From: Phoronis australis
Lineage: Eukaryota > Animalia > Phoronida
NCBI GenBank assembly: GCA_002633005.1
Contig: NMRA01000322.1
Location: 372,001 to 436,000 of the forward strand
Direction: 5' to 3'
DNA: 64,000 bases
A program made the translations under genes and the position numbers. Positions 584-63,161 of this stretch are shown piece after piece (within the stretch, counting starts at the first letter, position 1; every line of letters starts with the position of its first letter). The notes under the pieces are model-generated. The model saw only the letters and a list, made by a program, of their open reading frames with translations. It was not told where the DNA came from and did no database searches.

Positions 584-3500
584 CTAAATAAAAAAATAAA
601 ACGAACGTCAAACCAGTATTTAATTGAAAAGTGATTTTTCTACTACAAGCCAAAAGTAAATGGATCTAAAACAAAATGGAGACTGCTATAAGCTTACCGT
701 TTCCGCCGATAACCTGTAGATGCGGGTATTTATTCTTCAACGTTTGGATCATCTTGATTTGGAATACAGAATTACCCTGAGAAGAGTCCTGGAAATGCAG
801 AGAAATAATTGAGTTAAATTTACAAAAACAACTAAATATTCTTACCGGTGAAAGCATTAATAACAAAATGTCAGTCGCCAGTTTCAGGTAGTCTGTTTCA
901 GCTTGCACCGTCCATGTCCAGAGACTTAATATGACTATTTAATACTACAAGCTAAATAGCATAGCAAGGCAAAAAGTCTCCAAGACTGCTCGACAGAATG
1001 TAGCAAACTATATGCCCCAAAAACAGTGCTCCAGGACTCGATTAATAGACTTTCGGCATAAAAGTGAACTTAGTTAGATCCTTTTTTGCAAGCCTTCGAC
1101 TTGAAGCAACTAAACAATAACTCATCACCGTTTCAATTTTCAAAAAGATACAAAGACCAGAACCAATTTATGGCCTAATAGTTAGTTGCATCTTCGTGTG
1201 TGTGTGTACCTGTGTGTATCCTGGTTATCTGGACAAAAACTTAGACAAACTGAGATCAGAGTAACAGGAGTCATTTTTATTGCTGCTTTTCATCGCAAAA
1301 AAAACAGTTACGCAGTCTTTTAATATACTTCACCTGCTTTGGGGGGAGGGGGGGTTCAACATGTTTTAACGATGTCACTAAGCGATACTAAAACATTCAA
1401 CTTTTGCCTTTCAGCATCACAATTTTTAAAACATCAAAAGTGTACGCTACCAGCAAGCCCAGACATCTTCCCTCCAGTGTGTGAAATGGTGATAGTAAAT
1501 GGTCTCAAAGTCTGTTGGGCCTATATTCCCTCACACGACCTACACTCCCCTGAGATGCGAAGGTCAGTAGTAAATAATAACTTCCTCTTAATTGTGGAAT
1601 ACGTCAAGTTTTGTTGAAAAAACGTAATTGGCATCTAATTTTTTCACTTCAATAGCAGATATCTTCATTCATGTTTTTAGCATACCTACTTCAGGGTTTT
1701 ACTATTTCTTTGTCACAAGTCAAGCACTTATCAACATTTTTGTACTCGCTGCCTTGAAGAAGAATCGCATGCCAAGATTTTTCTTGTATTATAATTCTTT
1801 ATTCAAGTTAATCACCAACTGTTAAGGTTTTGAGAATAGCTGCCACTTGTCTTTTAAGTATGGCAGAGTAAAGTTATTGAAATACAAAAACCAAGCATAC
1901 TTTTTATAACTTTGTTTATGTCCTACAATGTAAGTGTTTCAAAAAATATATTGACAATTTCAAGTCATAAAAAATAAAAAGATGATCCAAAAGATTGTAC
2001 ATTTTCAATTATTGCTTAAAATACTATAACGGTTTAAGAAACGTTTACTTAACTCTGTTTGATTAAGACAGCTAAACAAAACAAATCCTTAGGCCTTAAC
2101 ACTGACTGCTAGACTACCCAAGGTTCAACAACCAATTTCACAAATTCCCAGCAAACACCAGATGAGGTCGATGCCTCGATTTCAGAGGACTAACTGGAAG
2201 CCTTTGAGAGGAATGGGTCAATATATTGTGTATGTGTAACAACCAAACCAGAACCAAAGTCTTTATTTTCCATTTTATTGAGGTTCTACTAACCAGCACT
2301 ACTGCATCCACTCCAGCCTGTACAAGTAGCTCCACACGATGGTAGTCATCCTGATGAGTGCCCACAGCTGCACCAACCAACAGCTGCTTCCTGGAAAATG
2401 GACATTACCACAATGTGAGGCCATCAGCAGAATCTTTATCAGGTACTCAAAAGGTGGCGCAGGGCACACGTTTCTTGGAACTGACAAATAACAACCAAGG
2501 TATAAAATTGCAGTTTCATAATAAATGGACCAGGACAAATGTACTGCCAGCTGTGTATTACAGTGGAGAGAAATTAATGGAACAAAGTTGTATTGTTACA
2601 AATAGTGAAGACAGTATTAAAACTTTTATGTGGAGTTGTATCGTAAGTAAAGCAAATATAGCATTTGGTATTTAGTTGTTATCCCAGCACATTCACTAAA
2701 CTTTGAGAATGCGAATATGTTTCAACGTTTTCTTATACCCAAAAATGTGATCATACCATTTCAAACTTTTGTCAATCCAAACTCAAACTTGCTTAAATGT
2801 CTTAATATTTTTGACAGTTTTCCCTTAAATTGAAGGTGTACTCTGACTTAGGCAAGCATTTAATGAGAACCCTTTGTTATTAATTTAGCTTTCACAGAGT
2901 ATTTGATATGGGAGACCCACTGGCTAACATTTTAGAGTTCCTCATTCCACAGACTGGAAGTTGTCAATACTTTGAGGCATAACGAAATCTGCTGTCATCA
3001 GTAAATATTGCAATATTGATTTTGTGACAAACTGCGATATATCATAAAGTAAGATAGATAATTCATAAACCAGTCCCTGACTTCCTCCTTGGATACACCA
3101 AAATTGCACAACTTTCTTGAGAGAAAATCATCGTTGACCGTATCAGAGATTTGCATGGATGTTCATACTCTGCATTCTCGCCCTGGCAGTTTTTTTGTTA
3201 AAGATTAAGTTCTTTCCAGTCCTTGCAAGGCCATCATATCTTAACTGTACTTTAACACGATCAACAAAAACAGATTGTATCTGTCAGTTTAACTACAATA
3301 TAACTGGCATGCAGAAACAGTATTAGCGATGTAGTTAATGTAGTTAATGTAGTTAATGTAGTTAATGTAGTTAATGTAGTTAATGTAGTTACTAAATATT
3401 ACTTCTCATCCTTTGAGGCAAGAGGGAATTCTCGATTCTTCTTAAGATCTGTCCTTGCAATGATGGAAACTAATTCCCCCTTCTCATTGACGATAGGTAA

Positions 3501-6500
3501 TTTACCTGTCAAAATAGAAAAACAGTGAAAATGCACACGTGAATGAAATGTTACGTCATAAAACATACAGTAACTACAAACTGCTCGCCAAATTCTAAAC
3601 ATCTGTACGGTGTGCCAAGAAATCATTACCGTCTATCGTTAACATTTTTCAAATAATCATTAACAACTCATTAAAATCCAACTGATCACAAACGCGTTGC
3701 ACTTACGGCTTCATAATGAAGCATTTATCTGATGTTAACTTTATAAAATAAAACCAAAGCAGTTCATTGATATACGCCCAAAACGTGCATAGCATACAGC
3801 GCATATACAAAGGACGACTATTAATTTCAACAGTCCTACTAAAGGCAAAAATCAGGGACGCAACTAGGCTTTGAAAAATGGGGGGGCCCAAATTCGTGAC
3901 AATGATGAGTCGCACAAAGCACGATTCTTAGGCACTGAAGGGGGAGGTCGAGAGGAGGTTTCCCCTCAGGGAAAAATGGAATTCGTATAAAAGATTATTT
4001 ATCCTTGCATTTTAGCACACTGCTTGCATGTTTTTTTCTTATTCAAATGACGGCATAAGAAGGAAACTAAACAAACATGAAAAGGGTTTCCTCTATTCAA
4101 GATGTGTGCATTGTCACCAGAGTGCAGAAAAATAGAGATGTCTTTTTTGCAAGATAATCTGTGCAGAGCGGCGGGTTGAGACAAATAATTCACAGCACGA
4201 CTTCAGAACTCAATGTATCTTGAAGCTCTCATAAGAACAGATGTGTATTATTTTATCGCAGCTGAACAAGATAATTTAATCTTATGAGAAAACAATGAAG
4301 TTGTATTCGAAAGGACAGGAAGAAATTTCATTTCCTTGAGTACATGTGTTTGTCAACGTTTCATTACGCCACGCAGTACTACAATTCAAAAGCCTGCAGT
4401 GAACAATAGAACAGATAAATTCACAACTTAGGCTTTCCAGTGCTCAACACAGGTGAAAATCTACACTCGAAAATAGCAGTGACGGCATATTTGTATTCGT
4501 ACTTGTATTCCTGGATTTGGCGGCTAAAAACAAGTCTGGTTTGAAATTAGTGCTCGTATATTTGCTTTTTCCACTTGTATTTCCACGCGTTTTACTTGCA
4601 ATTTGGTGCCACCTGGAGTTTGACTACGGATGTCGCCAAAACATTGTTTTGAGTGTCATCTACAGCGCATTATACATGAACACTTCGTTAAAATTGACTT
4701 ACCAGACACAAAGTCAACCACAGTCTTTCATATGCTACAAATTTATTATTAAAAAAAATTTTTTGTTCTCTCGCACTTTTAAGAGCGGATTCCCGGTCTG
4801 CTTCGCAGACGAAGTGACAGAGATCGTGCATGCGACTAGCTGACCTATTTTTTTCCACATATGCCACTCTGCGGCATAGAAGCAAATACTCAAATCACCC
4901 AATTTGATGGAATTCTGCACTACATTGAAATATTTTGAGGCTTTTAATTTCATGCAAAGTTAGCCAATGAACATGTAACCAATATTAGTCACACTTTTTT
5001 TTCTTGTGAAGTTTACACTGAATCACTCTCATGCATCAATGTACGTCATTCAGCATGGGCAGATTTTTTTGACACAAGTTTTTTATTCATTTGTTAGAGT
5101 TGCAGCGGAACAGCGCAAACAAAGTGAGGAAGTTTGCATTTAGTTTTATCTGGTTTGCATGCTCAACGACATTGAAGACATTTGTACGGCAAGTCAGTCC
5201 TAGAATTTTGGCGGGTATGGTCATTTTTTCAACATGTATTTTCTCCTATTTCAAGTTGGCTGCTCTGTTGAATACTTAGTGCCGATTCAAATTCCACATC
5301 CGCAACAAGCATTAGGGGTGTGGCATATCCTTTGAGCTTTGGTTCTGTGTACTTCAATTTCAAAGATTGAGAGTCCACGTAGTGCTTGATGCAACATTTC
5401 TTGAAACTCGCCATATGCGTGGAATTCTGTTTGAGGTCACCCTAATGTCGCAGAACTGGGAGGTATTCCCCTAAAAATATGGCTGCCAGTATTTGCCGAT
5501 CACCATTGTGAACAGCTTATTATTTAAAATGACTTATTCTTATTAAAATGACATAGGCAGAAAATTGAATTTTAGGCCTAAAAAGCGAGGCCCCCTATGC
5601 CTATGTCATTTTAATAAGAATAAGTAATTTTGAATAATAAGCTGTTTGTGATATTTATGGTAGGAATTCATGGCAGTAGTCTTTAATCACGAGTTGTGTC
5701 TGAATATTTATCGAACTAAAACAATGGATTGTAGGTTTCAATAAAACTTATTAATCAGAAATTTTAAAATTCTTCGCTTGGACATCGTTTTCGCCGAGGT
5801 TGTCTTGAAACGAGCCGTCTTTTTTCTGTCGTGGCCGTCATTCATTAAACTGACTGTACCAATGACGGCTGCTAGACAAGCCAATGTTATTTACCTTTTT
5901 TGCTTTTTTGCAATATTGAATTAGCCTCATGGAGCGTGACGTCTGCCGCAGCCACAATCAAGTCCTCCCGTTTCGTCATAACCTGAGACAATACAATAAG
6001 AATTTCGCATGAATCTAAACAGCCCGATGCACTAACACTTAGAGTATCGATATGCAACCACTGTATGCATTTCATGTAGCAAAGATACAGGAATGATCAT
6101 TATATCTAAACAATTTTGGTAGAGGGCGTAATACTAGAGCTGGCTACCAAAAAACAAAACTGCCACTAGGGGGCAGCACAACACAGTTAGCCGTCCCATT
6201 ACTATCTTTTACGTACATGGTTTCATATACAAAGGGAATGGCGACTACAAAAAATAAATTGTCACGATAACCTGAATCATCGGAAATTAAACATGTGCCA
6301 TTCATTCATTGATACAAAGAAGGCAACACATTTGCAAAATTTTATAAAGATCCATCACAGGACACGGAATACATTGAAACAGATGCACGTAAGGATATGC
6401 CATATTAGTCACATCCATCCATCCAACAATCAACGCCTCCTGGGCTCTCCTCAATACGAGCATATTTATGAGTCAATTTGCAAAACTTCAAGAAGATCCA

Positions 6501-9500
6501 TAAAGTCTAGAAATGACAATTAATGAAAATATATTATACAACACTGAAACATTCGAATTTGCAACATTTGACAAAAAATCTGAACATTTAAGTGCTATCT
6601 GCACGTCTCAAATTACACTGTCTTTTACCTGCTTTAAAAATCCAATTTGTGCAGATTTGTATTACTGAGCAATTATAGTATTGCTTAGTCAGAAACTCTA
6701 TGCATAGGAACAGTCATAGTAAAATGGTAATAACATCTCATTGTAACTTTGCAGTATATGAAGCAAAAACTGTGCAGGAAATCACTGCTAAATGACCGTT
6801 GCTGTCAATCAAAAATGAACTGTCACAAAAAATTGCTCTACACGTTTTGACAGGTTTCTAGCAAGAACACATTACCAAACAACTGAATGAGTAAGTAGTG
6901 ACACGTGACAGTTTATGTACAAACACAACAAGTGACAACTAATAACTTGAAGAACACACAGCAGCTAGAGTATAGCAGTAATTCTCCACAAATTTCGCAC
7001 AAAATTTGAGCCAAATTTATTCAAAGGCTACTGCAAGCAACAGAGACTTGACCATATGTTGTTACATGACACAATTCTTCACTCATTTCGCACAAAATTA
7101 GAGCCAAATCTATTCAAAGGCTACTGCAAGCAACAGAGACTTGACCATATGTTGTTTCATGACACCTGCTGAGTACACACCATGTCAAACTAATGTTAAC
7201 TTGATATTTATTTTGCAGAGAAATTTTATACCATAGTACACTCATATTATGCGCTAAATATGTGAAGAACCCATAGTTTCAAAAATAATGCTGTGAATAG
7301 GAATGATAATTCTGATTCTAAACACATTTAAATGCATATCACAAAAATGTTGCATAAGTAACGACAAACAGGCATTTCAACAAGATTTACGAAACATGAA
7401 ACAAAATTCAATGGTTTCACAAACGAGAGCAACGCAAGAGCGTCGACATGCTCCACAATGCATCGCAAATGGTATGCCTCCAAGAGTACTCAATCAGCTT
7501 CATTGTAAAGTGCAATAATACAACAACAATTTGACCATTAAGAGAGCCGGTGGATTGTCTTCTTATACCTTGGAGTCAAGTTTCCTTGAAATCGATTATT
7601 CAGTTCTTTAGACACCATTCCCAAACGCTCTTTCCCACAACACTCAAAACCTCCTGTGGCCATTAGGAAATGCTGCAGTGGTTGAATCTGCCCAAAAATC
7701 AAGTGGTGCTCCTATGCTTGTGTATTGTAATCGCCTATCCCTCTAGTGAATTGTCACCACTCATCACTCTAGTGAATTGTCATCACCCACCTCTCTAGTG
7801 CATTGTCATCAACCATCCCTCTAAATCAAGTTTCATTGAAATCCATCAATCAGCTGACATTATGCTGAAACACTATTATTCATAAAACTATTCTGTCAAT
7901 CAGTTCTCTAAAGTGTCAAGCACTATATCAGTAATACCCCAATACCCTACACCACCGCTTCATCTAGTGTCGGTGAGCGTCTAAGGCATCCAGCTGGATG
8001 CCGAGTATTGGATTTGGATGCCTTTCAGAGGATGCCCAAACTCAATTTTGGACACCCAGTTTCATATCAACTTCGATTTTTGGATGCTCAGTTTATTTTT
8101 GTTAACCAGTGCTAGTGTTTGAGTGATTGGCGAGAGCAGCGAGCCAGCGATTTTCATATTGAGAAATGACCAAGAAAAGATTATAATCACAGCAGGCTTT
8201 GTGAGGAACACTCCCGCGTGGATTATCCTGTTAACAGTCAGATTATTTTACTTAAGTTTACTTTAATTATCGTTTGTTATATTTTATTTCAATAATACAC
8301 ATTTTATTAGTATCTCACTCTTCTTGTTTTTACCAAAAGACATAAATATTTTGCAATAATGCAACAGATCAACTTTTAGGGCGTGACGAGACACAAATCA
8401 ATGTGACGGAATTCCTATCCGTTCAGTCAGAAAAATGCTAGCAAAATCCTGGATGAAGCCGTGCCCTGCATCAAGATCTGACCACTGCCTATAGAGAAAC
8501 AAGTAGTCAGCCCGATACCCGGACTGGATGGTGACAATATGCAACCACATAATCATGTAGGCACATTAAAAAGACAACATACAAAACAAAAACGATGCAA
8601 TACAAGGTATCGTATATTTAAACTGCATTTAGCCCTGTTAAGCTGCCTAAAAACAAAAATCCAACTGGACCTTTTACCCTCATAAAATAAGTTTTATCTT
8701 GACTAAGGATTCTATTTCCTTTACCAAATTAAAACACAGGCAATGCGTATCAGTGTTTTCCACAACACCAAATTCAAACTAGAGCTGAGTTACAAAATTC
8801 CTGCACATAATTTTTATTCGAAAGTCTATGTCCACACTTTGGAGAGTTAGTATGCTCGGTCTTGAAATAAATGCATTGAAGTGGTACAAAAAATACAAAA
8901 TGTTCTAATTTAAGTAATAACCAACCTTCCAATCCTTCAAACTCATTGCATAGGTTTTCAAACTTGACGTAAGTAAGCCAAACTAGTCACCACAAAATTC
9001 AACAAGTCAAAACAGGTTGTGGAGAACGCTGCGTGCATGAGCAATTTTGGGATTGGCCAGTTCTAATAAACTGTCAGTTGCTTGTAGTTTTGATGTTCTT
9101 GTTGATAATACAAATCAAATCCTATCATGTTAAGGGTCATTTTTATTTTTTGTCAGCTAAACATGGCTAAAAGCAGCATTTAGTAATATATAAGTGACCG
9201 ATTGTTGACAGCAACTAACGCAGTACACAAGACATAACTAAACAAAAACAGTAAAAAAAGGGCAAAAATACAAAGTGTGATAATATTCTGTTAAAATGTG
9301 AATGTCTACATTGATTTCTTACAGTAAGATGCAAGAACCAGAAGTTTGAAGTTATTTAGACACCTGTTTAGGTAATATGATTATTACCTGGGGACAATCT
9401 ATTTCCCTCAATGGCGGAGCATGTTACATGTATTCAATTCATAAGGTCGCCCACCTTGATTTCAGTGAAAGTCTGGCAGAATTGGCGAAATAAAATAATA

Positions 9501-12500
9501 ACAATAACGTGATAAAATCACAAAGGATTTTGTTGTTTTATAGCCTAAGCTCTGGTCAAAGTTTAATACTAAAGTTCTTCAAATAGTCTATTGCGTCCAA
9601 CAATAACACCAAAACTGCATTCTTCGGCCATAAAACAATGATGTCCCATTAAAAACATATGAGTGAAATTACACGAGCATTGGTCTAGCAGTTTGGTAGA
9701 CAGTATCGTGGACTGTTGTCAGTTTCCACTACAAGCCATTTGTTCCACAACTGACCAATCGCAGGCTCCGCCCCCTTGCGTAATGTTGACTACCAAACAA
9801 TAAGTTTTACACGGCAACGGGTTGTTTGTCGGGTAAAATGGCGGCTTGGAAACGAAGGTGTGTCAAGAATGATGAGTTCTAAATGGTCAGTTAAGCCGTC
9901 ACTCAAAGTCCTGGCGATAGGTCAATTAGGGAGTGCCTCTGATACAAACCAAAATTCAAATCTTCAACAAGGCATTCAAATGGTAAGTAAGGAAGAGCTG
10001 GGCGCCATAAACTGAAATTACCACTAATGGCCGCACCACTTCATAGATTTCTCAGAACATTGATGAGTAGTGTGCATCCGCAGCACAATGGACAAGCTGA
10101 ATTTCGCAGTTGGGTGACTATAAAGAATTAATTGTCACACGGTCGAGCACATCATTCACCTGATTTGTCTAGAAATTAAACAAGTACTGGCAATCTTTGA
10201 TCTGGATACATCTGCCAGATTATATGAAGATCCATCTCAAGACTTGTTAGACAGTGAAGAACACACGCACAAAGAAAACTGACAAAACTGCCACAAGGGG
10301 GTGCCACAGCAGTTAGATGCATGTAGAAAACAAAGCCCTATGTGCTCTCCTCAATAGAAACACAGATGCCAAACCTCACAAAGATCGATAGCTAGATATT
10401 GATTCAGAAGAAGATGCAAAAAAATTCACTGCCACTATGATGCAGCACAGTGTACAGATCAGTCTGAAAATCAACAACTGTGCTGCCCTCAGTAGGACCA
10501 CATATGAAACTTCATTAAGGTACAGTGAGGAATTTTGAAGATACTGAGACGGACACAAAAATAAGATTGCCACTTGGGGACACACTGTACCTGGACCCAT
10601 CCAAAAATCAACATCAAACTCGCTCTGATCACCAAGAACACACCTGCCACCTTTCACGATAATTCGTAGGCAGACAAAAAAATAATAAAAAGGTCACAAC
10701 GAGGTACAGAATACGTCAAATCACTCCAAAAAAGACAGATGCCATAGTAGCCTTAATAAAAACTACTATTTACAAACGAAGGCACCTAATTGCACATTAA
10801 ATCGTAGTCTGAATGCGTTCATTGACTGCTTCACACGATAGATTCACTGTCGCTAACGTGATTTATTCCAGTACCACAATAATTCAAAGTTCTACCTATC
10901 GTTAGTAAAATCTTATACCTTTAAGTTTTTGTTGCAATGTATGTAATTACAACTCATTCACTCCTGCTATGAAACTTATTCCGAATGTTAATGTGGGACT
11001 TAGTGAAAAAATGGGAAAGAAATGAGAAATAACTGTTCAAGTTATGGCTTTCTTTGACAGCTGCCACAAGAATGCAATATCACCATAGCGAGTCCTCGCT
11101 TACATGAAATCGAGGAAGGCTTTAGCCTTTAATTAACAGTGTCGTTGACCTATCTTATGGATGACATTCAAGATATTGATCAAACAGTGCTTTATAAAGA
11201 ATTTGTGAAATAATTTCAAAGCAACGTCAATTATCAAATACAAAGTTAACGGATTGCGTTCTTGAACTCATTCCAGAGTCATTGATTGGTTCATCAACAA
11301 TGATCAATCTCAAAAAAAAATTTTCTTGTAATTTTCACCTATCTAATCAAGTAAATTAATTTTTATAAATAAGATCGTCAATAATATTGTTTTTAAATCA
11401 AGTGTTTAAATATTCAAATCTGGCTGTCTCACATTACACAAAATTTGTTACCTCAATAAAGAATGGCAGACAATCAGTATCACAAAATGTCAGAAAAAAA
11501 ACAGCTGAACACGACAGTTAAAACTACAATGACAAGAAAAACACACAAAAATCAGCAAACAATTAGTAGGTGGACAACAAAAAATTCATAGAACAATTCA
11601 AAGGAAACCATTGTCGGCCATACGACAAACCCATCAGCAGACAACGACGCGCCTTTTTACTGCAGTTAGTCCTACCTCATGTACCCTGACCGTGTGACGC
11701 TTATCTTTAGGGAGAAAGTCGACGTCACGCTGAGTGACGAGTCCGACCAGTTTCCCACCGACCCGACCATTGTCTGTCACCGGGAAGCCAGAGAAGCCGT
11801 GCTTCTTTTTGGCCTGGATCACATCAGCTATCGCCTGTCCCGGGGACATCACCACCGGGTCCATTATAAAGCCCTGTTCGTACTTCTACAAAGTTAAGAG
11901 CAAACCACACACAGGTCAGAAAACCAAACATTGAACTCCAAACTAAGCATTAGTTCTCACTTCCACTTGCCCAGCGGGGACACGCATTACAAGTAGTTTT
12001 AAAAATTAACGATGTCTCACCTCACCAAAATTGGCAGTTTTCACCCAATTCCCTTCAGGTTAACAGTAAATTATGCAGGTTTACCTTTCGCAGTCTTTTT
12101 CCAAGACAAATTACCAACTTCCCTTTTTCTGATAATTTCACAGAAACCAGACAAACATCGTCAATTTTTTAAAACCATTATAATGCAGGCAGTGGTGGCT
12201 ACACACACAAGTACGCACCTACCCACGTTAGCCTGTAAAAGCACGCACACAAAGTCCGGCTTGTACCCACTCGTACTCATTCACACTCATACACAAACAC
12301 ACAAACACACACACACACACATACCTCGGTGATAAGGCGGTGGTGTTCGTCTTGGGTTAAGAAGTCAAAGTCACGCTGAGTTACCAGTCCAAGGAGCTTC
12401 CCACCAATGCGGCCAGTGTCAGTCACTGGGTAGCCAGAGAAACCATATTTGGCTTTTAACTCAACGGCCTGGTGGACAGTGGCGGTGGGCAGGATGCAGA

Positions 12501-15500
12501 CAGGGTCAAGGATGAACCCTTGCTTGAATTTCTAGACGAACGCACACAGGAAGAACAGACAACTCATTTAAAAGACACCAGGCATTCAGCTCATGTCAGT
12601 TGGCTGAGTGCAATAAAGCCTTGAAGTTGTCACAGCAAGATTTGAAATGGTGACATTTAATTAAATTTTGTGCATTTTCATTTTCCAATTTATAGAGCAG
12701 AATCAAAATATGAATACTACTAATAGTGCTACAAAATCTTGGTGAGAACAATAGTACGTATTCAGTTTCCTATTAGCTTAGAAACTTTAACTCTCGAATC
12801 TTCAGCTTTAACTGGCTAAATTATCACATATATTTACAGCTGCAAAAATTTGCCTTGCTTTTGAGCCATCTTTGGGTATTTTTTAGGGGAAATGGGCTGA
12901 CAACCAGCACCAACATTGAGACAACAAGTACCCTACAACAAAGCCAAAGTGAGATGCAGATCACGAGTGATTGGAACGAGCAATTCATGACAGTCAAGAA
13001 AATACTTCCATAACTAGTCTTTAACTTTTAGTGGCTCCCTACTCTGGTCTGTTCCAGCATCCTGAGTCTAGCACTGTCTTGCATTTAGTCCATTCTAAAT
13101 GACTTTTTGTATTGAGTTTAAAATTATTGTAATAAAGAAAGAATATTCGAAAACTGAGCAAAAAGTCTATATTGTATGCGACTAGTCACCATGACATAAA
13201 TTTTCATTTTGATTTGATGACCTCATCATGCCGTTTTCGTAACGTTACTCCATGCATATTCACAGTATGCAAATCACCCATCTATTGGCTGTTATGCAAT
13301 CACTAAGTGACGGGATCAGTCGGGTGTTTCTGTATTTAGAAGGAATCAATATTTTACATCTACTAGCGTGAAAAGTTACTGAATGAATCAAAAAGTGTCA
13401 AGCACCTCAACAAAAATGAAATGTGACAACAAATAGGTTGTTGCGCCGATTCAAAACTATGTGCAGTTGACACGAACACAAACACACAAACACACACACA
13501 CGCACGCGCACACGTGCACGCACCAACACGTACAGACATGAGCACAAGTACAAAACAAGTGAGTCTGATAAACAATATAATTACAACATATCTGAATAAA
13601 CGATTACTAACAGTAAAACCTCTGCAATTTGGGATATGGAAACTTGCAGAAATTTCTCGATTCCTATGGAGTATGTGAATTTGCGGTCTTTCTGGTGATT
13701 CTTGTGTTTGGGATGACCATTTTTGTCTTAATCCCCGACCTGGCACAAATTATTTAACAATGATTTCACTGTCCCGAATTGGAGAATTTTAACTGTACTA
13801 TCAGAATCACACAAAGACATTGCATTGCAGGATGGTTGGTTAACCCCAATAAACTCTTAAGTGTTTTCCTAAGTCACCCTACACTCTTTCAATGTTCTAC
13901 TTGGTAACAGAAATAAAAGGAATTTTACAACACCCATTCCATGAGCGTAAAAAAGCTTAAGTCGATTTTCATTGAAATTAAACACAGCAAAATGCAGCTA
14001 CAAAGTTCCCAGTAAAACCCCGTCAAAATGAATTCAACTGTTGCCAAAATAAACTTAATTAAAAAGCACAGTATAAATCAAGGGAAAATTAGTCGTAAAT
14101 TACGAAATAATGGATAGTTTTGAAAAATTCAGTTAGGCCACGCCCACCATAGCAACCGTTGTGAAGTTCCACGAGCACAAAGTGAACGAGGCTTCATTTG
14201 GATGTCGAATAGATTCAGACAGTGTGACATCACAGCTGCGAGTATTTTTAGCTAAGGTTTTTCAAATTCGGTGAAACAACGGGTGTGCAGTTAAGCTATT
14301 CTAAAGCACAACTTATAATCAGAAATAGACAGCATCAACCTTCGCTGGAGAACAGTTGCAGTTTGCTCTTGGGAATAAGAATACAAGAGACTTGGGTTAT
14401 TGGCAAGGTAATGATTCCATAAGTCATGTTATGGTAAAAAAGAAAATATTTGTAAAAAGTTAAGATTAATTTATTTTGGACTCGCACATTATGAAATATA
14501 TCCCAAAAACCCCAGGCCTTTTATTTTTCATTCTCCATAAATCATTACTCTGCACTTTATGGGCTCCAAACTCCACGAAAAAAACATTTTCCTGCTCTCG
14601 TTAGCAACAAATGTTTACGAGACTGAAGATATTTTCCTGTGAGCTGAATAACTAGCATTCATGAAAAATTGAAAACTTGTGAACGAATTGACTCTAGGTT
14701 TAAGTGTCCAGGAACAATTATGACTAGTCTAACTGCAATAGAACGTGTAGGTAGTGGGCTCACCTTGACTTTCCTAACCTCCTCTGCCTGATACTCAGGT
14801 GTACAGTTATGGTGAATGATACCACAGCCCCCACACAGCTACAATAAATGATGAGAACACTTCCAGACTAACAATAACGACTAATAACAACAATAACGAC
14901 TAATAGCAACAATAACGACTAATAGCAACAATAACGACTAATCAGCAGGTGCTCCCCATTGATATTATTAGTTCATATTTTCATCATGTCATTTACACAC
15001 AAAGTTCATTCACATATTAGGAAAACGTAACAAGATCATGTGATCCCATAATGCAAGCAGTTACGCTGTCCCGAATTGGCACCATAAAAAGTCTCGTACT
15101 TGGTCAAAAACCAAATAAATACAATGCTTATGGAGAGATCCCTCACTTGCACCCACAGCACACTTTAAGTCAAAATGAAGACGTGAAGTTTAAAGCCCCT
15201 TTCATACTAACGTCGAAGCGTCAATGTTTTGTGGAGTTTTGGTCAGTGTGAATGGTTAACTTTGGTCCTGGATCCAAGTTAACAGCATCAGTTAACTTCG
15301 CAGTAAACAGGTGGATTTACCAGTGGATTGTCAACGCTGCGGTATGAACGGTCAACTTTGGTCTCATCAAAGTTATCACCAGGGACCACTGTTATCCTCA
15401 ACAATTAGAAAGCAGCGTCATCACTAATAGTTGCTTATATTTTGCTCGAATAATCACCAATCGAATTTGAGATGAGTTTTATGACAATTAGCACACGTAA

Positions 15501-18500
15501 ATGTTCTCAAAAATCTTAGCATGCATGGAATGCATCAGCGCTACCTTGCGATTACTTCGATAACAAAAGCGTCACCTATCATTTATTTCGAAGCCGTTAA
15601 CTACCAAAGCTGGTATGAACAATTCAATAAACTTCGCACTTTACATCGACGCTCTGCTCATACTGGAGTTAAGTTAGTACGAAAGGGTCTTGAGAATAGT
15701 TTACACCTGCATAGCGGGACATACAAAAGTCACACAATGGCAAGACACTGACAATATCTAAACCCTGATAACAGTGAAACCAGAAATTCAGAGACGGTTC
15801 CAAAAAAATCAAAGAACGAACTTTCCAGCCAAAAATCACTATCAGTTCCAAAAATATTATAGTCACAAAACAGCAAATGTTTGTACATTTTTTTGTCAAT
15901 ATTTGGCATGTCAAAGACTGAGCAACCACTCATTAAGTGGTGGCCAGATGCCCTCACAAATGGCCTGAATGACCCAGTATCGCTATGACAAGCGCTGAAC
16001 TTTTGAAATTTTGCTTTGTGTTTCTATCAGGTGGACAGTGCGATGCCTTCTCAAACAGCAAAAGCAAGCCACTGACATCAGTATAACTTTCACTTACTGC
16101 CATAACTATGGCCATTTGAGACTCAGTCACTGTATCCATGGGTGACGACAACAAAGGTGTCTTCAGGGTAATTTTGCGTGTAAGGGCAGAGGTCAAGTCC
16201 TGAAAAGACACAAAACATTTAAAAACGGATGTGAAGACTAAACAAAATTATGCAAATGACTGACCCAATTATGACTGACACATACGATGGTCACTTCGTG
16301 ATACTCATATGACATATTAGACAGGAAAACAGTTCATAAGGCATACAACAGTGATGTCATACAACAAGTACCCATTATTTACATAGAGGAAAATTACAAC
16401 ATCTGTACACAGGAAGATGGCAACAGGAATGACCCACACCTTAGTGATGAAAATAAATATGCAAGTCCCTCATTGCGTAACTTAGGGTACTGCTTGGGTC
16501 GATACCCATCTGAAATTTGCTTTTAACTGTTAAAACAGTTTGAAAAACAAAATCCACCTGTGACATTTCAAAGCAATTTTATCTTTGATCCAAGAGCTTG
16601 TTTGAAACCTTTCCAACTTGACAGACACTACACTTAACACAGAACCCCCAACATTAGTGGGAACGAAACTAAAAGAACCTATAAGTTACATAAATGGGCT
16701 ATAATTTGCAAGAACAAATCTGACACCTGTGAACCTATTAATCTGAAAATTAGGACTCAACCACAGATAATTACAGCGTGATATAACTACATGTGACGAT
16801 ATTACAGAATTACACCTCAGGATGGCAATTAGCTGTGGAGAGCATTCTGCAGAAGGTCTCAGAGGTAATGAATGATAGGGATCAGAACTGATTGGTGACA
16901 CCAGGGGACAAGTCAGAGTAGGGCTATCCATACCCCGAGCCTCAAACTGACACATGATCAGACTAATTAACAACGCACAAACATACCCAGTAATAACTAA
17001 TCAATAAGATTTCCTAAACATATACTTGCACACACATTCACCACAGCCTCCAAACCCATGTTTAAAAACAATAATTTAAACACCTATGTTCGGTAAAATT
17101 TTTAACAGTTGGAAATTTTAAATCATAAAAATGACATTTTCATGAATGCCCACTCATAAACGGTAACTTCCAAAATGCTAACAGCACACTGCATACTTTG
17201 TATTCACAGGAACATAGTTCAACTTGGTTTGAAGTTGAATTGACAAGCGAACAGGATCACTCCCAAAGCAGGAATGCGAATCAAAAACATTTTTAATTCT
17301 AATGTTCCGTATCACACCTGCCAAGACCGTGAAGAAGGCGCTAGCTGCAACTAGGCCGTAACCGCTAAATTCGACTACTGTATTATCGCAGTCCCACTTT
17401 AAACTGTCACAACTTCGCCATTTCTAAACGTACAGTCATAACTTTGGTATCCACATGCTCAGGAAACATGTAGAATTTGTTTCACAATATCAGTTTCACA
17501 ATATCAGTTTTACATCACAATTACGAACTTTGAAGTTCACGCTTTCTACGAACTTAATGCAAAATCGCGATATACGTCAGTGACGTCATCAACGTCAAGA
17601 GACATCTAGTGATGAATGTTTTGTAATCGCACTTCAATTTTATTTCAAAGGCTTGTTACTTAGTTAAAACACTCAAAATGTTTGATTTATTATAACTACC
17701 TTGTTCAGTACTACCGTTACACCGGTCAACAGTTCCATTGGTGGATATCAGTTACTTATCATGACAGAGGGGCCAGCAATGCACAGCCGGCTGTGGACCT
17801 TTGGTATTACAAAACCATGTGAATGGCCACCGATACCAAGTGGTATCAGAATTATATGGATCTCCATCACCCTCTTTTTAAATCAATGTTTTTACAGTCA
17901 AGGTCATAGTTTTATTTAAGCAGACAAAGAAAAAGTGCACAATAGCACAAACACTAGGCTAGATCACAGTTTACCATACCCAATGTGTATGAGCCAATCA
18001 GCTTCTTCCATGGGTCGTCAATGGTGACCAGTGGTGTGAAAAGGCAGCATCCATAGATTATTTTTTACTGGTCCTGACCAGTGAGGTCCAACAATAGTTC
18101 TATACCCCTGTTCCCTGTCAGATTTTAGAGTGTGAACTGGGTTTCAGAAAGACAATATGTGACTCAATTTCAGAAGAATGGACCCATTTGCATTTTAGGA
18201 AGAGAGTAATGACGAAATTTACCCTTAGAATATAAATTGCCATGTAACTCCTAAAACTGCTGTGACAAGTGCACTACTCGCAGGTGAAACAAACCATAGT
18301 CAATAAAAAGGTTTACTTACCACTTCATCAGCAGTGAAATTGATGAAACCAGGCAAGATGAGAAAGTCACTAAAAAGATGGAAAATACCAATTAGAGATA
18401 AATTAAGGTGACGGTTAACTAGCCTTCATCAATTCGTTTCATGTTTCATCAAATCACTTTACGTATAGCCAAGGATTCATTGTCAACCTATAGTTTATAT

Positions 18501-21500
18501 TTATTTTAGGTCTCTTGTTATTTAAACTCCACAGCACCTTAAGAGTAGATTTATAACAATATTGTTGCATCTTGAATTTTCAAAATGCTAAGGATTTCTT
18601 TACAAACACAGGACAGCAACTGAAAAACAATAATTTAATCAAGTTAGCATTTTGTTTTATTTACATATTATAATGTGCTCCAACTATCTGACTTTGAATT
18701 CTACTAAGAATATGTAAATGACCTATCAGAAAATACTTTTGAAAATGAAAAAGTCCAATGCACCAAGTTTAAATCTGTAGCAACATCTTATGATTTTTTT
18801 TACTTGATATTATTGCAGTCTTTAAAATTTAATCGTTTTAAGGTTCTTGGATGTGAGATACATTTTATTTTCTGCAAGGTTAGAAAGTAAAAATAAGACC
18901 TAATGTTCTTTTTATTGGCTGAAAAGTTGTAATTCTAGGGTGCGATGGATTTATGGAACGAAATGAATGTACAAATTTGAAGTGGGCGTGTGACTTAACG
19001 AATAATCCTTGAGTTCTAAAATTTCGGTCAATAGTATTGAAAGAGAATTTTGAAGGCTGAATACTAACAACTAAACTTTTTATCGCTTTTTTGTGACCGA
19101 TGTACCACACCACAGCATCCAGGAGTTGGCCTNCATCACAGCTGCGAGTATTTTTAGCTAAGGTTTTTCAAATTCGGTGAAACAACGGGTGTGCAGTTAA
19201 GCTATTCTAAAGCACAACTTATAATCAGAAATAGACAGCATCAACCTTCGCTGGAGAACAGTTGCAGTTTGCTCTTGGGAATAAGAATACAAGAGACTTG
19301 GGTTATTGGCAAGGTAATGATTCCATAAGTCATGTTATGGTAAAAAAGAAAATATTTGTAAAAAGTTAAGATTAATTTATTTTGGACTCGCACATTATGA
19401 AATATATCCCAAAAACCCCAGGCCTTTTATTTTTCATTCTCCATAAATCATTACTCTGCACTTTATGGGCTCCAAACTCCACGAAAAAAACATTTTCCTG
19501 CTCTCGTTAGCAACAAATGTTTACGAGACTGAAGATATTTTCCTGTGAGCTGAATAACTAGCATTCATGAAAAATTGAAAACTTGTGAACGAATTGACTC
19601 TAGGTTTAAGTGTCCAGGAACAATTATGACTAGTCTAACTGCAATAGAACGTGTAGGTAGTGGGCTCACCTTGACTTTCCTAACCTCCTCTGCCTGATAC
19701 TCAGGTGTACAGTTATGGTGAATGATACCACAGCCCCCACACAGCTACAATAAATGATGAGAACACTTCCAGACTAACAATAACGACTAATAACAACAAT
19801 AACGACTAATAGCAACAATAACGACTAATAGCAACAATAACGACTAATCAGCAGGTGCTCCCCATTGATATTATTAGTTCATATTTTCATCATGTCATTT
19901 ACACACAAAGTTCATTCACATATTAGGAAAACGTAACAAGATCATGTGATCCCATAATGCAAGCAGTTACGCTGTCCCGAATTGGCACCATAAAAAGTCT
20001 CGTACTTGGTCAAAAACCAAATAAATACAATGCTTATGGAGAGATCCCTCACTTGCACCCACAGCACACTTTAAGTCAAAATGAAGACGTGAAGTTTAAA
20101 GCCCCTTTCATACTAACGTCGAAGCGTCAATGTTTTGTGGAGTTTTGGTCAGTGTGAATGGTTAACTTTGGTCCTGGATCCAAGTTAACAGCATCAGTTA
20201 ACTTCGCAGTAAACAGGTGGATTTACCAGTGGATTGTCAACGCTGCGGTATGAACGGTCAACTTTGGTCTCATCAAAGTTATCACCAGGGACCACTGTTA
20301 TCCTCAACAATTAGAAAGCAGCGTCATCACTAATAGTTGCTTATATTTTGCTCGAATAATCACCAATCGAATTTGAGATGAGTTTTATGACAATTAGCAC
20401 ACGTAAATGTTCTCAAAAATCTTAGCATGCATGGAATGCATCAGCGCTACCTTGCGATTACTTCGATAACAAAAGCGTCACCTATCATTTATTTCGAAGC
20501 CGTTAACTACCAAAGCTGGTATGAACAATTCAATAAACTTCGCACTTTACATCGACGCTCTGCTCATACTGGAGTTAAGTTAGTACGAAAGGGTCTTGAG
20601 AATAGTTTACACCTGCATAGCGGGACATACAAAAGTCACACAATGGCAAGACACTGACAATATCTAAACCCTGATAACAGTGAAACCAGAAATTCAGAGA
20701 CGGTTCCAAAAAAATCAAAGAACGAACTTTCCAGCCAAAAATCACTATCAGTTCCAAAAATATTATAGCCACAAAACAGCAAATGTTTGTACATTTTTTT
20801 GTCAATATTTGGCATGTCAAAGACTGAGCAACCACTCATTAAGTGGTGGCCAGATGCCCTCACAAATGGCCTGAATGGCCCAGTATTGCTATGACAAGCG
20901 CTGAACTTTTGAAATTTTGCTTTGTGTTTCTATCTGGTGGACAGTGCGATGCCTTCTCAAACAGCAAAAGCAAGCCACTGACATCAGTATAACTTTCACT
21001 TACTGCCATAACTATGGCCATTTGAGACTCAGTCACTGTATCCATGGGTGACGACAACAAAGGTGTCTTCAGGGTAATTTTGCGTGTAAGGGCAGAGGTC
21101 AAGTCCTGAAAAGACACAAAACATTTAAAAACGGATGTGAAGACTAAACAAAATTATGCAAATGACTGACCCAATTATGACTGACACATACGATGGTCAC
21201 TTCGTGATACTCATATGACATATTAGACAGGAAAACAGTTCATAAGGCATACAACAGTGATGTCATACAACAAGTACCCATTATTTACATAGAGGAAAAT
21301 TACAACATCTGTACACAGGAAGATGGCAACAGGAATGACCCACACCTTAGTGATGAAAATAAATATGCAAGTCCCTCATTGCGTAACTTAGGGTACTGCT
21401 TGGGTCGATACCCATCTGAAATTTGCTTTTAACTGTTAAAACAGTTTGAAAAACAAAATCCACCTGTGACATTTCAAAGCAATTTTATCTTTGATCCAAG

Positions 21501-30500: not shown

Positions 30501-32778
30501 TTTAAAACGAGTTCACAAGGAATTTATTATTATCTGACTTTGATACTTTTAGTGGCGACTTAGAATTTTCCCAAGGTCACCAAACACAATCTGAGGTCGC
30601 ATTGGCGACCTGCAGGTTGCGGACAGGTTGTGTGCTGTTTTATTCACTTCAGGTATCTAGTTTACTTCATTTTTGGCTCTTGCCAACTACAGTATGCATC
30701 ATTTACAGTACCCTTGGTGCAAAGCTACATATACTAAATTTTCGGTAGTCTTCATACAGCTAGCTGACTGCAGGAGACTTTCACACCATCCCATCTCCCA
30801 TCAATTTTCATGCTGTCAATGTCACTACAAATCGAATACAAGTCGGACTTTACTTATCCGAACTGCTACTGTTTCAAATTCGAAAATGAAATTCACAAAA
30901 CGAGTTGAATTCAGTGTCTGGTTAATGTTTGACAAGCTGAAATGATTGAGCCTTAAACTCTAAGATAAAAGCTTCTTCATGTGTGGCACAGAACTGGCTT
31001 CACTGACCCAGAGCTAATGCATGTGAGTAGAGAAAAACACAAACTTGTGCACTGTTTTTTGGAAAGAAGAAGAAATTTTCTACAATATACTTGACAAATA
31101 CTAGCAGTCGCTCACTGGCACTGTAGGTTTGATTAGCGACATGGAACTGCCACACCGACTTTGCCTGAACCTCAATCACCTCATAGCATTGACTATACAC
31201 AGTTCACACTCTTATACAACTCAAACACAGAGGAGTAGAACCGAAAATTTGGATCTCGTACATCAAGAATCTGTCTGTAACCTTGGTACTTGATGTAAAT
31301 TGTTAACTCCGAGCGTACCTACCCTTTGAAGGGATTAGAAAAATTATATTTAATCATTAAAGCAGTTAGAAAGCATCAAAAATCAAACTGACTCAAATGA
31401 CTTTAGTGCAGTAGAACTGATTTCCAAATGATTAAGATTCTTATTAAACCCAGGATTGTAGCCAAGTTTCATCCACTGAATCACTGGCCCATTATTCAAT
31501 GGTTGTTTACTAGCCGAGATAATCAGTCGTGGGAATCGAACTAGCGACACTGATAAAACCGGCGTGAGTGCTTAACCATTCAGCTCTTCTTCTTGGTTTA
31601 AGCGACCACACTCTCTCCAGAGTATTATGTCACTGTATAACAATGAAAACCAACAAAAAACGAGAACAACTATAACAGGTTTGAAAGGATATATATATAC
31701 ATATACATATACATAGTGGACCTCACTTCAGAGGTCGGTTAACACACTATTAGGTAGATCGGTAACAGATAAGGCAGTCAGTAAACGGGTGCTCCAAATG
31801 GAAGCACCCCACTATGTTGTACTGCAGAAAGGCAGACAGCTTGCTGACAAAGATATCAAGAGAAGGGACTGATGTAATGCAACCCGGCAAGCTATTAGAG
31901 TCTGCGACTGTTCTATTGCCCATTAGCGAGTGGCTATCAAAGGCTCAGATGATTCACCGCAAGCAAATCTACAACATCTACCCTTTCCAATGGAACGTAA
32001 TGTGAACACCAGGTTGTCTCTCGTACAGATCCTCAACTCCTGGAACTTTGACTATCACCATACCATGAGCACCGTCCGAGGTCTGTGGGTAGTGGTTGTC
32101 AGTGATTCATCGGTAGATCATCCGTTTGCTGACTACGCCAAATGTAGTAATGGCCGACCCGTCAATCGAAATAGCCACCCCAATAAAACCGACAAGCGTC
32201 CTAACCTTTCAGAACTTTCCACTCATAGGCAATGCAGCCTTAGCGAGTGGCTAACAGAGACTCGATATATAAATGTTCAGTATTCTTCACTCAAGTACAT
32301 GATGGTTTACCACTATGAGTTTCTAGAACAAATTAACATTTGATAGCCCTAAATCAGAGCTACAAACTCAGAGTTCAGACTTGAACTCTTAGCCTAATGC
32401 TGGGGTCACCAAGTGCAAACTAGAATTATACAACTATCCATGTATTGTAACTAATGTAACTTGTAAGCCATTGCGTAGACTAATCAGGAATTGTAATGAA
32501 CTTACCTCGACTTATCACAACAGAAGAATAGAAAAATAAAAATAATATTGAGTTCGATTTCGAGTACAAAGACTAGATCTCAATACAGGGACCACGGTGC
32601 CACATTCAACTCGTGTCATCTGTTGACTGGTCACTGTCGTTTTTCATTTCTTATCTGGCGCCTTTTAATTTACTACTTACTTGTAAGTTAGACCATCTCC
32701 ATTTCCAAATAATTGTCTTCCCGTAAGACCGTCGTCCGGCACATACCCCGTAGCACCAGAAATCAAATGTTCAGCCAT
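488..32778 (-). CDS. IMPDH: Inosine-5'-monophosphate dehydrogenase, multi-exon gene span; 3' exons lie left of the window
   Basis: GT-AG exons join in frame: [19 protein letters not shown] / DFLILPG / [13 protein letters not shown] / CBS pair / DSSQGNS / [14 protein letters not shown]. Exon sizes 98,49,102,75,207 or 210,88,103+97,91,96 match the vertebrate IMPDH layout as I recall it. Confidence 0.98.
698..788 (-). CDS. IMPDH: IMPDH exon 9 ([30 protein letters not shown])
   Basis: 91 nt; TTTCCAG / GTAAGC; DSSQG motif. Confidence 0.96.
2294..2390 (-). CDS. IMPDH: IMPDH exon 8 ([32 protein letters not shown])
   Basis: 97 nt; TTTTCCAG / GTTAGT; phase fits exon 7. Confidence 0.95.
3329..3390. 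repeat. 9-bp tandem repeat (ATGTAGTTA) x~7
   Basis: Read directly; ~12 nt from the IMPDH exon 7 donor. Confidence 0.92.
3403..3505 (-). CDS. IMPDH: IMPDH exon 7 ([33 protein letters not shown])
   Basis: 103 nt; ACAG / GTAAT; IARTDLKKN motif. Confidence 0.95.
5511..5646. repeat. Inverted repeat, 49-bp arms with 2 mismatches, 38-bp spacer
   Basis: 5511-5559 is the reverse complement of 5598-5646. Confidence 0.85.
5895..5982 (-). CDS. IMPDH: IMPDH exon 6 ([30 protein letters not shown])
   Basis: 88 nt; CTCAG / GTAAAT; start of CBS2. Confidence 0.95.
6992..7164. repeat. ~80-bp direct repeat x2 (period 94)
   Basis: ATTTCGCACAAAATT...GACCATATGTTGTT.CATGACAC occurs twice. Confidence 0.85.
7741..7823. 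repeat. ~27-bp degenerate tandem repeat x3
   Basis: CTCTAGTG(A/C)ATTGTCA.CA units. Confidence 0.7.
11676..11885 (-). CDS. IMPDH: IMPDH exon 5b, CBS1 variant B ([70 protein letters not shown])
   Basis: 210 nt open frame, phase 0/0; TTTGTAG acceptor, GAG|GTAGGA donor; overlaps ORF 11634..11864. Confidence 0.94.
12283..12322. repeat. (CA)n-rich tract; UG-rich in the pre-mRNA directly after the exon 5a donor
   Basis: Read directly. Confidence 0.85.
12325..12531 (-). CDS. IMPDH: IMPDH exon 5a, CBS1 variant A ([69 protein letters not shown])
   Basis: 207 nt open frame, phase 0/0; TCTAG acceptor, GAG|GTATGT donor; absent from the ORF track, translated by hand. Confidence 0.93.
14764..14838 (-). 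CDS. IMPDH: IMPDH exon 4, second copy
   Basis: Same sequence as 19670-19744 at offset 4906. Confidence 0.9.
14869..14942. repeat. 19-bp tandem repeat (AGCAACAATAACGACTAAT) x~4; also at 19775-19848
   Basis: Read directly. Confidence 0.88.
16098..16199 (-). CDS. IMPDH: IMPDH exon 3, second copy
   Basis: Same sequence as 21004-21105 at offset 4906. Confidence 0.9.
18321..18369 (-). CDS. IMPDH: IMPDH exon 2, second copy ([16 protein letters not shown]), probable alternate haplotype
   Basis: Same as 25300-25348 except GAT>AAT; lies in the duplication joined at N19133. Confidence 0.8.
19670..19744 (-). CDS. IMPDH: IMPDH exon 4, upstream copy ([25 protein letters not shown])
   Basis: 75 nt; TGTAG / GTGAG; GIIHHNC motif. 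Confidence 0.92.
21004..21105 (-). CDS. IMPDH: IMPDH exon 3, upstream copy ([34 protein letters not shown])
   Basis: 102 nt; TTTCAG / GTAAGT; SSPMDTVT motif. Confidence 0.93.
24119..24891 (+). mobile_element. 5'-truncated Penelope-like retroelement (GIY-YIG endonuclease end plus probable pseudo-LTR)
   Basis: ORF 24191..24688 has VVYEVVCP...C...YIGQT...L..RL..H...H...H...LESLLI...KP.LN; block is absent from the homologous position near 17780-17920. Confidence 0.82.
24682..24719 (+). ncRNA. Minimal hammerhead-ribozyme-like motif in the Penelope-like terminal repeat
   Basis: CAC-UUGAGAA-U-GAAAC-aaguau-GUUUC-GAAA-UAUC-GUG: core with U3/A8 covariant, 5-bp stem II, 3-bp stem I. Confidence 0.45.
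25300..25348 (-). CDS. IMPDH: IMPDH exon 2, upstream copy ([16 protein letters not shown])
   Basis: 49 nt; TTTTTAG acceptor, GTAAGT donor; phase fits exon 1. Confidence 0.94.
28925..30012. repeat. Direct duplication 28925-29468 / 29470-30012 joined at N29469; probable haplotype overlap
   Basis: Two ~544 bp copies with scattered SNPs on either side of the N. Confidence 0.85.
31430..31590 (-). mobile_element. tRNA-derived SINE-like relic
   Basis: Minus strand AGCTGAATGGTTAAGCAC (A-box-like) and AGTTCGATTCCC (B-box-like); no full cloverleaf; boundaries approximate. Confidence 0.5.
32681..32778 (-). CDS. IMPDH: IMPDH coding exon 1 ([33 protein letters not shown])
   Basis: ATG directly preceded by an in-frame TGA; 98 nt; donor AA|GTAAGT; Tyr12 present. 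Confidence 0.96.
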
Positions 32779-34494: not shown

Positions 34495-35027
34495 AAAGAT
34501 ACTATGCTGTTATGATTAATTAGATTGCTTCAGGCTGCTGATGTTATCATTCTGTAGAGTACGATACCATCATAAACACATTGGGGGTGATAATAGTATT
34601 TTTAAATTAAGTTTGTAAATAGCACATTTGATTAGTTCATGAAAAGCAAACGTGATGTGAAAACTGGAAAGAAATGTGATATTTACAACCTAAAACGTTT
34701 GTTTGATGTTACCATATTTTTTCATTAATTCTACTGAGTGTGCAACATAATTGGGCCAATTACCAAACTACCAGGCAGCAGTTGGATTTTGAGGTGAGCC
34801 AAGTGTTGTGCAATTCTTGCCATGGCAGGACACAAACATGTTTCAGGTCTTTTTGGAAAGAACGTGTACGCGATGTGCCCTGTACATTCAAGAGGATTTG
34901 TTTGTGAAGTCATTGCTCATCAAGATATCATCTCTGCCTGTATAGGGTTTTGTCCAGTTTTTGTTTAATCGAGCTTCTTCCAAAATACATCCTTAATCAG
35001 TGTTTGCATTTCTTTTATAATTTTCAG

Positions 35028-35190
35028 ATGGGTTCCCTGTTGCGAACATTTCTTCTGTATGGTGTTGTTATTAGCGTCCTTCTTGCCGTTTTCTTGAACT
35101 TCCCAGCTCCTGAGCTATCTGACCGACTGAAGAACTGGAAGCAAAGGGGGCAGTACTTTGACTTTGAAGGGCACAAAATCTTTTACATTG
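35028..35190 (+). CDS. MEST: MEST coding exon 1 ([54 protein letters not shown])
   Basis: TTTTCAG|ATG; 163 nt; donor G|GTACAG. Confidence 0.92.

Positions 35191-53052: not shown

Positions 53053-63161
<10,109 letters not shown>

Follow-up and report, generated by a model that had tools for sequence, protein, structure and literature searches.

IMPDH gates GTP synthesis, and the allostery of this enzyme serves as a drug target and also as a locus of disease, namely retinopathy and dystonia. In vertebrates, GTP feedback is tuned by the paralogues IMPDH1 and IMPDH2 and by the retinal IMPDH1 splice variants 546 and 595, according to the accessible text of PMC9375230 and PMC9022972, and the known fine-tuning moves GTP sensitivity, not activity (PMC9375230, accessible text). 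Exchange of homologous exons is described for other metabolic genes: OGDH and PKM are included in a human catalogue of tandem duplicated exon substitutions, where IMPDH had 0 hits in the accessible part of the supplement (PMC8373072), and coq-2 (exons 6a/6e) and mrp-1 have homologous exclusive exons in helminths, annelids and molluscs, an ancestral versus independent origin being unsettled for coq-2 in the accessible text (PMC7434440). Here we describe an IMPDH gene on the minus strand of a 64,000-nucleotide (nt) stretch of Phoronis australis DNA (contig NMRA01000322.1, positions 372,001 to 436,000). This whole stretch is called the window, and positions are given within it. The gene contains two old copies, 5a and 5b, of the exon for the first CBS motif (CBS1) of the Bateman domain; the copies are very likely used one per message, and the resulting enzymes probably differ in the amount of GTP needed for compression and inhibition.

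Exon 5a (12325..12531, minus strand; 207 nt, 69 amino acids) and exon 5b (11676..11885, minus strand; 210 nt, 70 amino acids) were identified by translation, Pfam CBS matches (32.0 and 29.6 bits for the two exons, cut-off 24) and RNA. Both are stop-free and of phase 0/0, with AG ahead and GT behind, and they are separated by an intron of 439 nt (11886..12324, minus strand). Exon 4 (14764..14838, minus strand), which is constitutive and ends with RKVK at 14764, provides the donor for both copies, and the likewise constitutive exon 6 (5895..5982, minus strand), starting with VMTK at 5982, is the acceptor after the alternative exons. This arrangement had been read from the letters alone in an earlier note, and translation and coordinates agreed with it. 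The hand count of about 38 identical residues of 70 given there was reproduced by alignment (38/70 columns), and BLASTP found 37/64 identical residues (E 3e-30). Both exons align to human IMPDH1 starting at residue 109 (span 109-177) and encode CBS1 with the N-terminal hinge, 5a being the derived copy (K111, C120, Q129, Y142 and F163 in human numbering) and 5b the consensus-like one (E111). Neither exon had a close relative among the candidates compared, the best match reaching 63% for 5a (48 candidates) and 72-74% for 5b (80 candidates).

At the nucleotide level the two exons are 60% identical, with 33% identity at third positions and differing codons at 21 of the 37 residues that are identical within the first 64 codons. 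The flanks are unrelated, and the stretch from exon 4 to exon 6 is free of N letters (first N of the window at 19133), all of which is in line with the earlier description. Nei-Gojobori counting gave proportions of nonsynonymous (pN) and synonymous (pS) differences of 0.26 and 0.87, respectively, the latter being saturated. With a similar pair present in annelids as well, these values bear out the proposed old duplication with selection on both copies: 5a and 5b are old tandem duplicates, both intact and under purifying selection.

Splicing was followed in three raw-read runs from the same species (X1, X2 and X3; about 18-19% of each), which were placed on positions 5800-15200, joints with fewer than three reads per run not being listed. 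A further run, X4, which consists of contigs whose RNA nature is only guessed, did not cover either exon. Both alternative exons were covered in 3/3 runs, and three of the five junctions whose counting had been proposed earlier were read in each of them. Exon 4 was joined to 5a (14764>12531) by 1, 3 and 4 reads in X1, X2 and X3 (8 in total) and to 5b (14764>11885) by 4, 3 and 5 reads (12 in total), so that 8/20 reads leaving exon 4 went into 5a; 5b was joined to exon 6 (11676>5982) by 2, 3 and 5 reads (10 in total). The fourth junction, 12325>5982, was not read directly, and the fifth, 12325>11885, was not listed. Non-use of one exon and constant inclusion of both exons had been named as findings that would speak against the claim; 8 reads passed from exon 4 into 5a and 12 into 5b, and no joint from 5a to 5b was listed. 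A joint skipping from exon 4 to exon 6 was not listed either on 5800-15200 in the three runs (threshold three reads per run). The joints were on the strand of the gene, and first mates over the exons mapped to plus, the orientation that most stranded libraries give for an RNA from the minus strand. All read variants in 5a (2/2) and three in exon 6 were synonymous.

The donor of 5a adjoins a masked (TG)n repeat, where rows get dropped; the dropped rows were compared between two stretches. On 5800-15200 they comprised one joint and 0 loose ends, and on 11560-12759, which contains both alternative exons without exons 4 and 6, 0 joints and one loose end. On the latter stretch a joint across the 439-nt intron from 5a to 5b was neither listed nor dropped at the threshold of three reads per run. 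Since the dropped joint turned into a loose end once exon 6 fell outside the stretch, it was not a joint from 5a to 5b, and we infer that it was most simply the one from 5a to exon 6. Unaligned read letters corresponded to exon 4 at 11887 and 12537 and to exon 6 at 11674 (agreement 0.99-1; six rows displayed, one not). Altogether, 5a and 5b are very likely used one per message.

The exchanged segment was then compared with the human and Ashbya Bateman domains (IMPDH1 7rer, IMPDH2 1b3o, Ashbya 6rpu/5tc3). Exon position 1 corresponds to human residue 109 and Ashbya residue 115; native numbering was assumed for chain 6rpu, consistent with Asp168 falling on D. Both exons keep D162 (the Asp of site 1), R161, D164, F165, F139, I115 and G113, and 5b has one extra residue near its end. 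The human phosphosite S160 (exon position 52; 12376-12378 in 5a and 11730-11732 in 5b) has been replaced by Q in 5a and 5b alike, the residue that molluscs, annelids and nemerteans also have; thus, a phospho-switch at S160 is absent here. The accessible text on the Ashbya enzyme names 13 CBS1 contacts to GDP/ATP or at the Bateman interface (Asn118, Gly119, Ile121, Val125, Phe145, Ala146, Gly147, Ile163, Ser166, Arg167, Asp168, Gln170 and Phe171; PMC4660370, PMC5454003), several of which differ from Ashbya in both exons (e.g. Ser166 = Q), and places the hinge at Glu117-Ala123 (PMC5454003). The hinge corresponds to exon positions 3-9, within which 5a and 5b differ at 111 (K/E) and 116 (L/M). Other differences between the exons cluster in the first helix (120-135) and in the C-terminal linker (167-176), off the named ligand contacts. 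Compared with 215 unique homologous segments, 5a departs from conserved positions by C120, I121, L122, Q129, A130, L133, Y142 and F163: the consensus residues D129 (Q in 5a) and V120 (C in 5a) were present in 184 and 186 segments, respectively, and Y142 was present in 0 and F163 in 4.

With one of two tandem CBS1 exons in each message, the gene would produce two enzymes differing only in the hinge and the first CBS motif. The ligand-contact residues do not differ between the two exons, so that any regulatory effect would likely be a shifted GTP threshold, not a new ligand. Tuning would then proceed via the hinge (K111 in 5a, E111 in 5b) and the packing of CBS1 core and helix, shifting the equilibrium between extended and compressed forms at unchanged ligand choice, and mixed octamers would show graded GTP sensitivity. 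That the hinge can act in this way is suggested by the human IMPDH2 changes G113E/R, with which the enzyme is compressed without GTP (PMC10055058, accessible text). A Glu-Arg salt bridge at 111 was not found in the accessible parts of PMC7018514 or PMC9462843 and was not used. Judged from the sequence, any regulatory consequence of the swap would probably be subtle.

A comparable pair was detected in annelids. Among the matches listed from a search with a full-length homologue (120 of 1443), the Paralvinella palmiformis model P0005 has two tandem CBS1 segments of 69 amino acids, and at metagenome locus L012 the peptides of this pair are separate AG/GT exons, 65 nt apart. Two CBS1 copies were present at 23 of the 80 loci kept from a metagenome scan (best 80 of 146 confirmed loci); most other spiralian-type loci start or end close to the exon, and many lower-ranked loci belong to other eukaryotes. 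The analysis covered 19 of the 23, leaving out the duplicates L018, L021 and L027 and the frameshifted contig L002, and yielded 18 distinct protein pairs; the 19 are largely close kin, not independent cases, L012, L024 and L026 being more distant. In 19/19 loci the exons are 207 nt long, with E111 in the first and K111 in the second. The donor of the first exon is GT at 18 and GC at one of them; GC donors were noted at L016:904-905 and L018:897-898. Within-class pN/pS over 16 loci amounted to 0.056/0.66 and 0.069/0.61. Transcripts P0276 and P0275 are identical in 337/337 residues past CBS1 versus 32/59 within it. In the 3' part of the spacer, many related loci (L001-L030) retain a motif resembling GGGAATTC, often doubled, about 12-35 nt ahead of the second exon.

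A second CBS1 version per species was not seen in the listed isoform sets of oysters (15/65 members), other bivalves (15/15), Lineus (5/5) and Tubulanus (4/4), which is not proof of absence. Three further candidates for an exon pair were rejected: Owenia P0011/P0038 are paralogues with differences along their whole length, the two Babylonia sequences come from separate contigs, and what looks like an insertion in Nucella is a short repeat of the gene model. Comparison of Owenia fusiformis P0284 with P0011 revealed one isoform with 14 extra residues ending in ISE directly after the CBS1 exon, possibly a duplicated exon-end remnant or a microexon and, as such, another route to vary the same linker. 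A single-exon CBS1 peptide in P0184 and P0343-P0347 (ENA) has the unusual 5a-like residues F110, K111, C120, L155 and F163, and FastTree puts it together with 5a (0.91, on long branches); it is possibly the 5a-like exon of another animal. The full-length IMPDH P0003 (JGI) falls among annelids by its constant part and has a divergent CBS1 with VCILP like 5a, which may be a third exon type or reflect fast evolution. For Lingula anatina, the RefSeq model P0139 (XP_023933184.1), whose CBS1 has K111, is a fusion of IMPDH with a PPP4R1-like part. At CBS1, gene models of annelids are in error: in that of Paralvinella the two exons are run together, and in others just one of them appears.

The earlier note had proposed two regulatory isoforms made by swapping CBS1. 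Its splicing half, one exon or the other, is supported by the RNA and by the annelid pair; for its regulatory half, only indirect tuning is plausible, the 13 contacts being identical. A difference in GTP threshold is nevertheless the outcome that we consider probable, and several points weigh against it. With 13/13 named CBS1 contact positions identical, the isoforms may behave alike, and since single annotated IMPDHs of the ordinary kind, from lamprey and Lingula, have K111 as well, this residue is not necessarily a switch. The accessible parts of the literature searched assign E111 no role other than its place in the hinge. On the RNA side, the junction from 5a to exon 6 was never displayed in a read, the small read counts (about 19% of each run) and the three-read listing threshold leave room for rare co-inclusion, and the data contain no contrast of tissue or stage, 5a and 5b being present in all three runs.

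It is conceivable, though we think it unlikely, that the exons are mutually exclusive and near-equivalent for allostery, both being kept since each must fold a working Bateman domain, with subfunctionalised expression, stability or temperature tuning as the difference between them. The identity of the named contacts would fit this explanation, as would the tolerance of K111 in single-copy enzymes, the variability of many differing positions across the 215 homologous segments and the use of both exons in every run. It does not account well for 5a altering conserved positions (D129 to Q, V120 to C, Y142, F163) or for the annelid copies, which hold two distinct classes with E111/K111 fixed in 19/19 loci. 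A second alternative appears rather improbable to us, namely that the swap alters a Bateman surface serving a role other than GTP sensing, such as nucleic-acid binding, a protein partner, or hetero-octamer or filament compatibility. The differences do lie in the first helix and C-terminal linker, away from named ligand contacts, and single-stranded DNA-binding, transcription and sanglifehrin roles of the Bateman domain are reported (PMC5454003, accessible text). Any such partner would be conjectural, however, and the sole difference in common with annelids sits in the allosteric hinge.

That 5a should be minor or in decay, or be spliced in along with 5b, seems very improbable. 5a is more divergent than 5b, co-inclusion would keep the frame with both lengths being multiples of three, and its joint to exon 6 was not displayed; yet 8/20 reads from exon 4 enter 5a, no joint from 5a to 5b was listed or dropped, and the frame of 5a is intact despite saturated synonymous divergence, with synonymous read variants. 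An assembly artefact with merged haplotypes or paralogues can practically be dismissed, as the earlier note had argued: the assembly does duplicate haplotypes, exons 2-4 being repeated around the N at 19133, but these repeats match at 93-99%, introns included. Between 5a and 5b, by contrast, identity is 60%, the flanks bear no relation to each other and no N intervenes. Both copies also receive junction reads from one and the same exon 4, a result that by itself refutes the artefact.

Whether the window and annelid pairs go back to one duplication was considered separately. Both window exons contain the motif LVTQRD, which was also seen in molluscs, annelids, nemerteans and Lingula and was absent from echinoderms, Ptychodera and vertebrates. 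In a FastTree built on 266 constitutive residues, the window IMPDH fell next to the mollusc-annelid-nemertean group and outside it (support 0.84 and 0.94, with two rows left out), so that its owner is likely a spiralian other than the pair-bearing annelids. The K111/E111 split in each pair and the similar C-terminal ends favour a shared origin. An independent origin is favoured by the exon order, E111 then K111 in relatives and, reversed, K111 (5a) then E111 (5b) in the window, and by rare residues that 5a and 5b share: among 81 TQRD-type segments, D146 was found in 10, R149 in 3 and an aromatic residue at 142 in 6. Gene conversion between 5a and 5b could be the source of these shared residues. 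Approximately unbiased (AU) tests rejected neither a clade of 5a and 5b (p 0.31) nor 5a with the K-types (p 0.56), the trees having 30 rows, 69 columns and low support, and a FastTree of the exon had similarly low support. 5a is about equally close to both annelid classes (36-40 and 33-43 of 69 residues). On balance we lean towards two pairs that arose independently. A more tentative proposal, which we put forward with reserve, is that at least two spiralian lineages independently duplicated the exon and converged on the E111/K111 hinge charge swap, one gene thereby making GTP-sensitive and GTP-resistant subunits that would mix in octamers and be switched by tissue or oxygen state. If this held true, splicing of the pair would stand in for the division between IMPDH1 and IMPDH2 in vertebrates, and nature would have provided an experiment on the hinge.

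As to how exclusion is enforced, a mechanism based on frame was rejected since both exon lengths are multiples of 3, and U12 incompatibility since both donors are ordinary GT. In Dscam-type docking/selector schemes, competing long-range pairings flank both exons. In the window no competing RNA docking stood clearly above background: the best 30-nt duplexes had -23 to -33 kcal/mol versus -24 to -29 for 12 random intron pieces, and no arm was shared. For OGDH, exclusion is enforced by branch points less than about 50 nt from the upstream donor (PMC7969005, accessible text). The 439-nt spacer of the window, with CTAAY at +97 and +375 and an AG-free zone of 50 nt, does not show this steric arrangement. 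The spacers of the relatives measure 60-163 nt in 18/19 loci, have an AG-free zone of at least 57 nt in 18/19 and in many cases contain, some 25-55 nt past the donor, a motif of the CTAAY type (predicted branch points); by analogy with OGDH, such short annelid spacers likely enforce exclusion sterically. As frame, steric spacing and U12 sites do not explain exclusion in the window species and RNA docking does not appear to, control by splicing factors is likely, and it is these factors that would set the choice. Three of the eight ACTAAY motifs in 8.8 kb flank 5b (11954, 11670 and 11567), among them an ACTAAT 69 nt ahead of it, and the (TG)n run follows directly past the 5a donor, a pattern noticed after the fact. 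Presumably these are candidate sites of the STAR/QKI type (ACTAAY) and the CELF/TDP-43 type ((TG)n); the upstream ACTAAY at 5b may simply be a branch point.

The remainder of the gene was traced on the minus strand from the first coding exon matched by tblastn (exon 1, MAEHLISG..., 32681..32778) via exon 2 (18321..18369; second copy 25300-25348) and exon 3 (16098..16199; second copy near 21004-21105) to exon 4, of which a near-identical copy at 19670-19744 is likely a haplotype duplication. Downstream of exon 6, exons 7-10 (3403-3505, 2294-2390, 698-788 and 489-583) encode CBS2 and, as far as ITQE, the catalytic domain. The gene runs past the window, and the exons past 10, with the catalytic C-terminus, lie outside it. 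Joined by coordinates, exons 1-10 gave stop-free frames of 335 amino acids with 5a and 336 with 5b. A tblastn search of the window with a full-length homologue revealed no other old duplicated IMPDH exon.

The repeats around exons 2-4 are of a different kind. Positions 14228-17244 recur at 19134-22154 (98.8%) and 17921-19132 at 24892-26106 (92.8%), around the single N at 19133, duplicating exons 2-4 with introns included (93-99% identical), and further near-identical blocks at 28925-30012 lie on either side of a single N at 29469. Near-identical blocks at single-N joins are likely two haplotypes joined by the assembler, and those at 14228-26106 and 28925-30012 will mislead gene models. Duplicated blocks (94-97%) also occur at 53570-57296, with a tandem array near 56827-57296. 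Among the neighbours, exons of an alpha/beta-hydrolase gene (34908-44590, plus strand; weak Pfam Abhydrolase_1) stand head to head with IMPDH, and exons of a formylglycine-generating enzyme (SUMF1-like) gene lie at 59612-63189 on the minus strand. The hydrolase appears MEST-like; human MEST and IMPDH1 are both located at 7q32.

Duplicated or mutually exclusive IMPDH exons were not found described in the accessible full-text literature, a search that left subscription papers, bioRxiv supplements and invertebrate exon catalogues outside, so that an unremarked database entry is possible. In their accessible parts, two reviews describe terminal retinal extensions only, and a paper on fungi refers to splicing of IMPDH in Pneumocystis and Trichophyton, the type not being stated there. 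The earlier note had known of no such case, and for IMPDH such a CBS1 exon pair indeed seems to be undescribed, although splicing of this class is well known from PKM, OGDH and coq-2. Natural CBS1 cassettes on one catalytic core, retained by annelids and by the window species, are ready variants for probing which non-contact Bateman residues set the GTP threshold. The pair is also a further case for judging the frequency with which metabolic genes of invertebrates have repeatedly gained homologous exclusive exons.

The vertebrate IMPDH variants consist of N- or C-terminal extensions or of two genes, and internal replacement of CBS1 by a homologous exon was not found among them in the accessible sources. 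OGDH exons 4a/4b and PKM exons 9/10 likewise are internal, homologous and nearly equal in length, and they too are exchanged within an enzyme under allosteric regulation. Unlike in these, the IMPDH swap concerns half of a Bateman domain, the 439-nt spacer has no steric arrangement, and the case is known here from sequence and RNA. With coq-2 and mrp-1 the gene shares homologous exclusive exons in several spiralian lineages of invertebrates and a role in metabolism. The exons of coq-2 and mrp-1 reach molluscs, whereas the listed isoform sets of molluscs and nemerteans showed no second IMPDH copy. In coq-2 the exons swap catalytic substrate choice with a tested effect, whereas in IMPDH the swap would exchange a regulatory domain.

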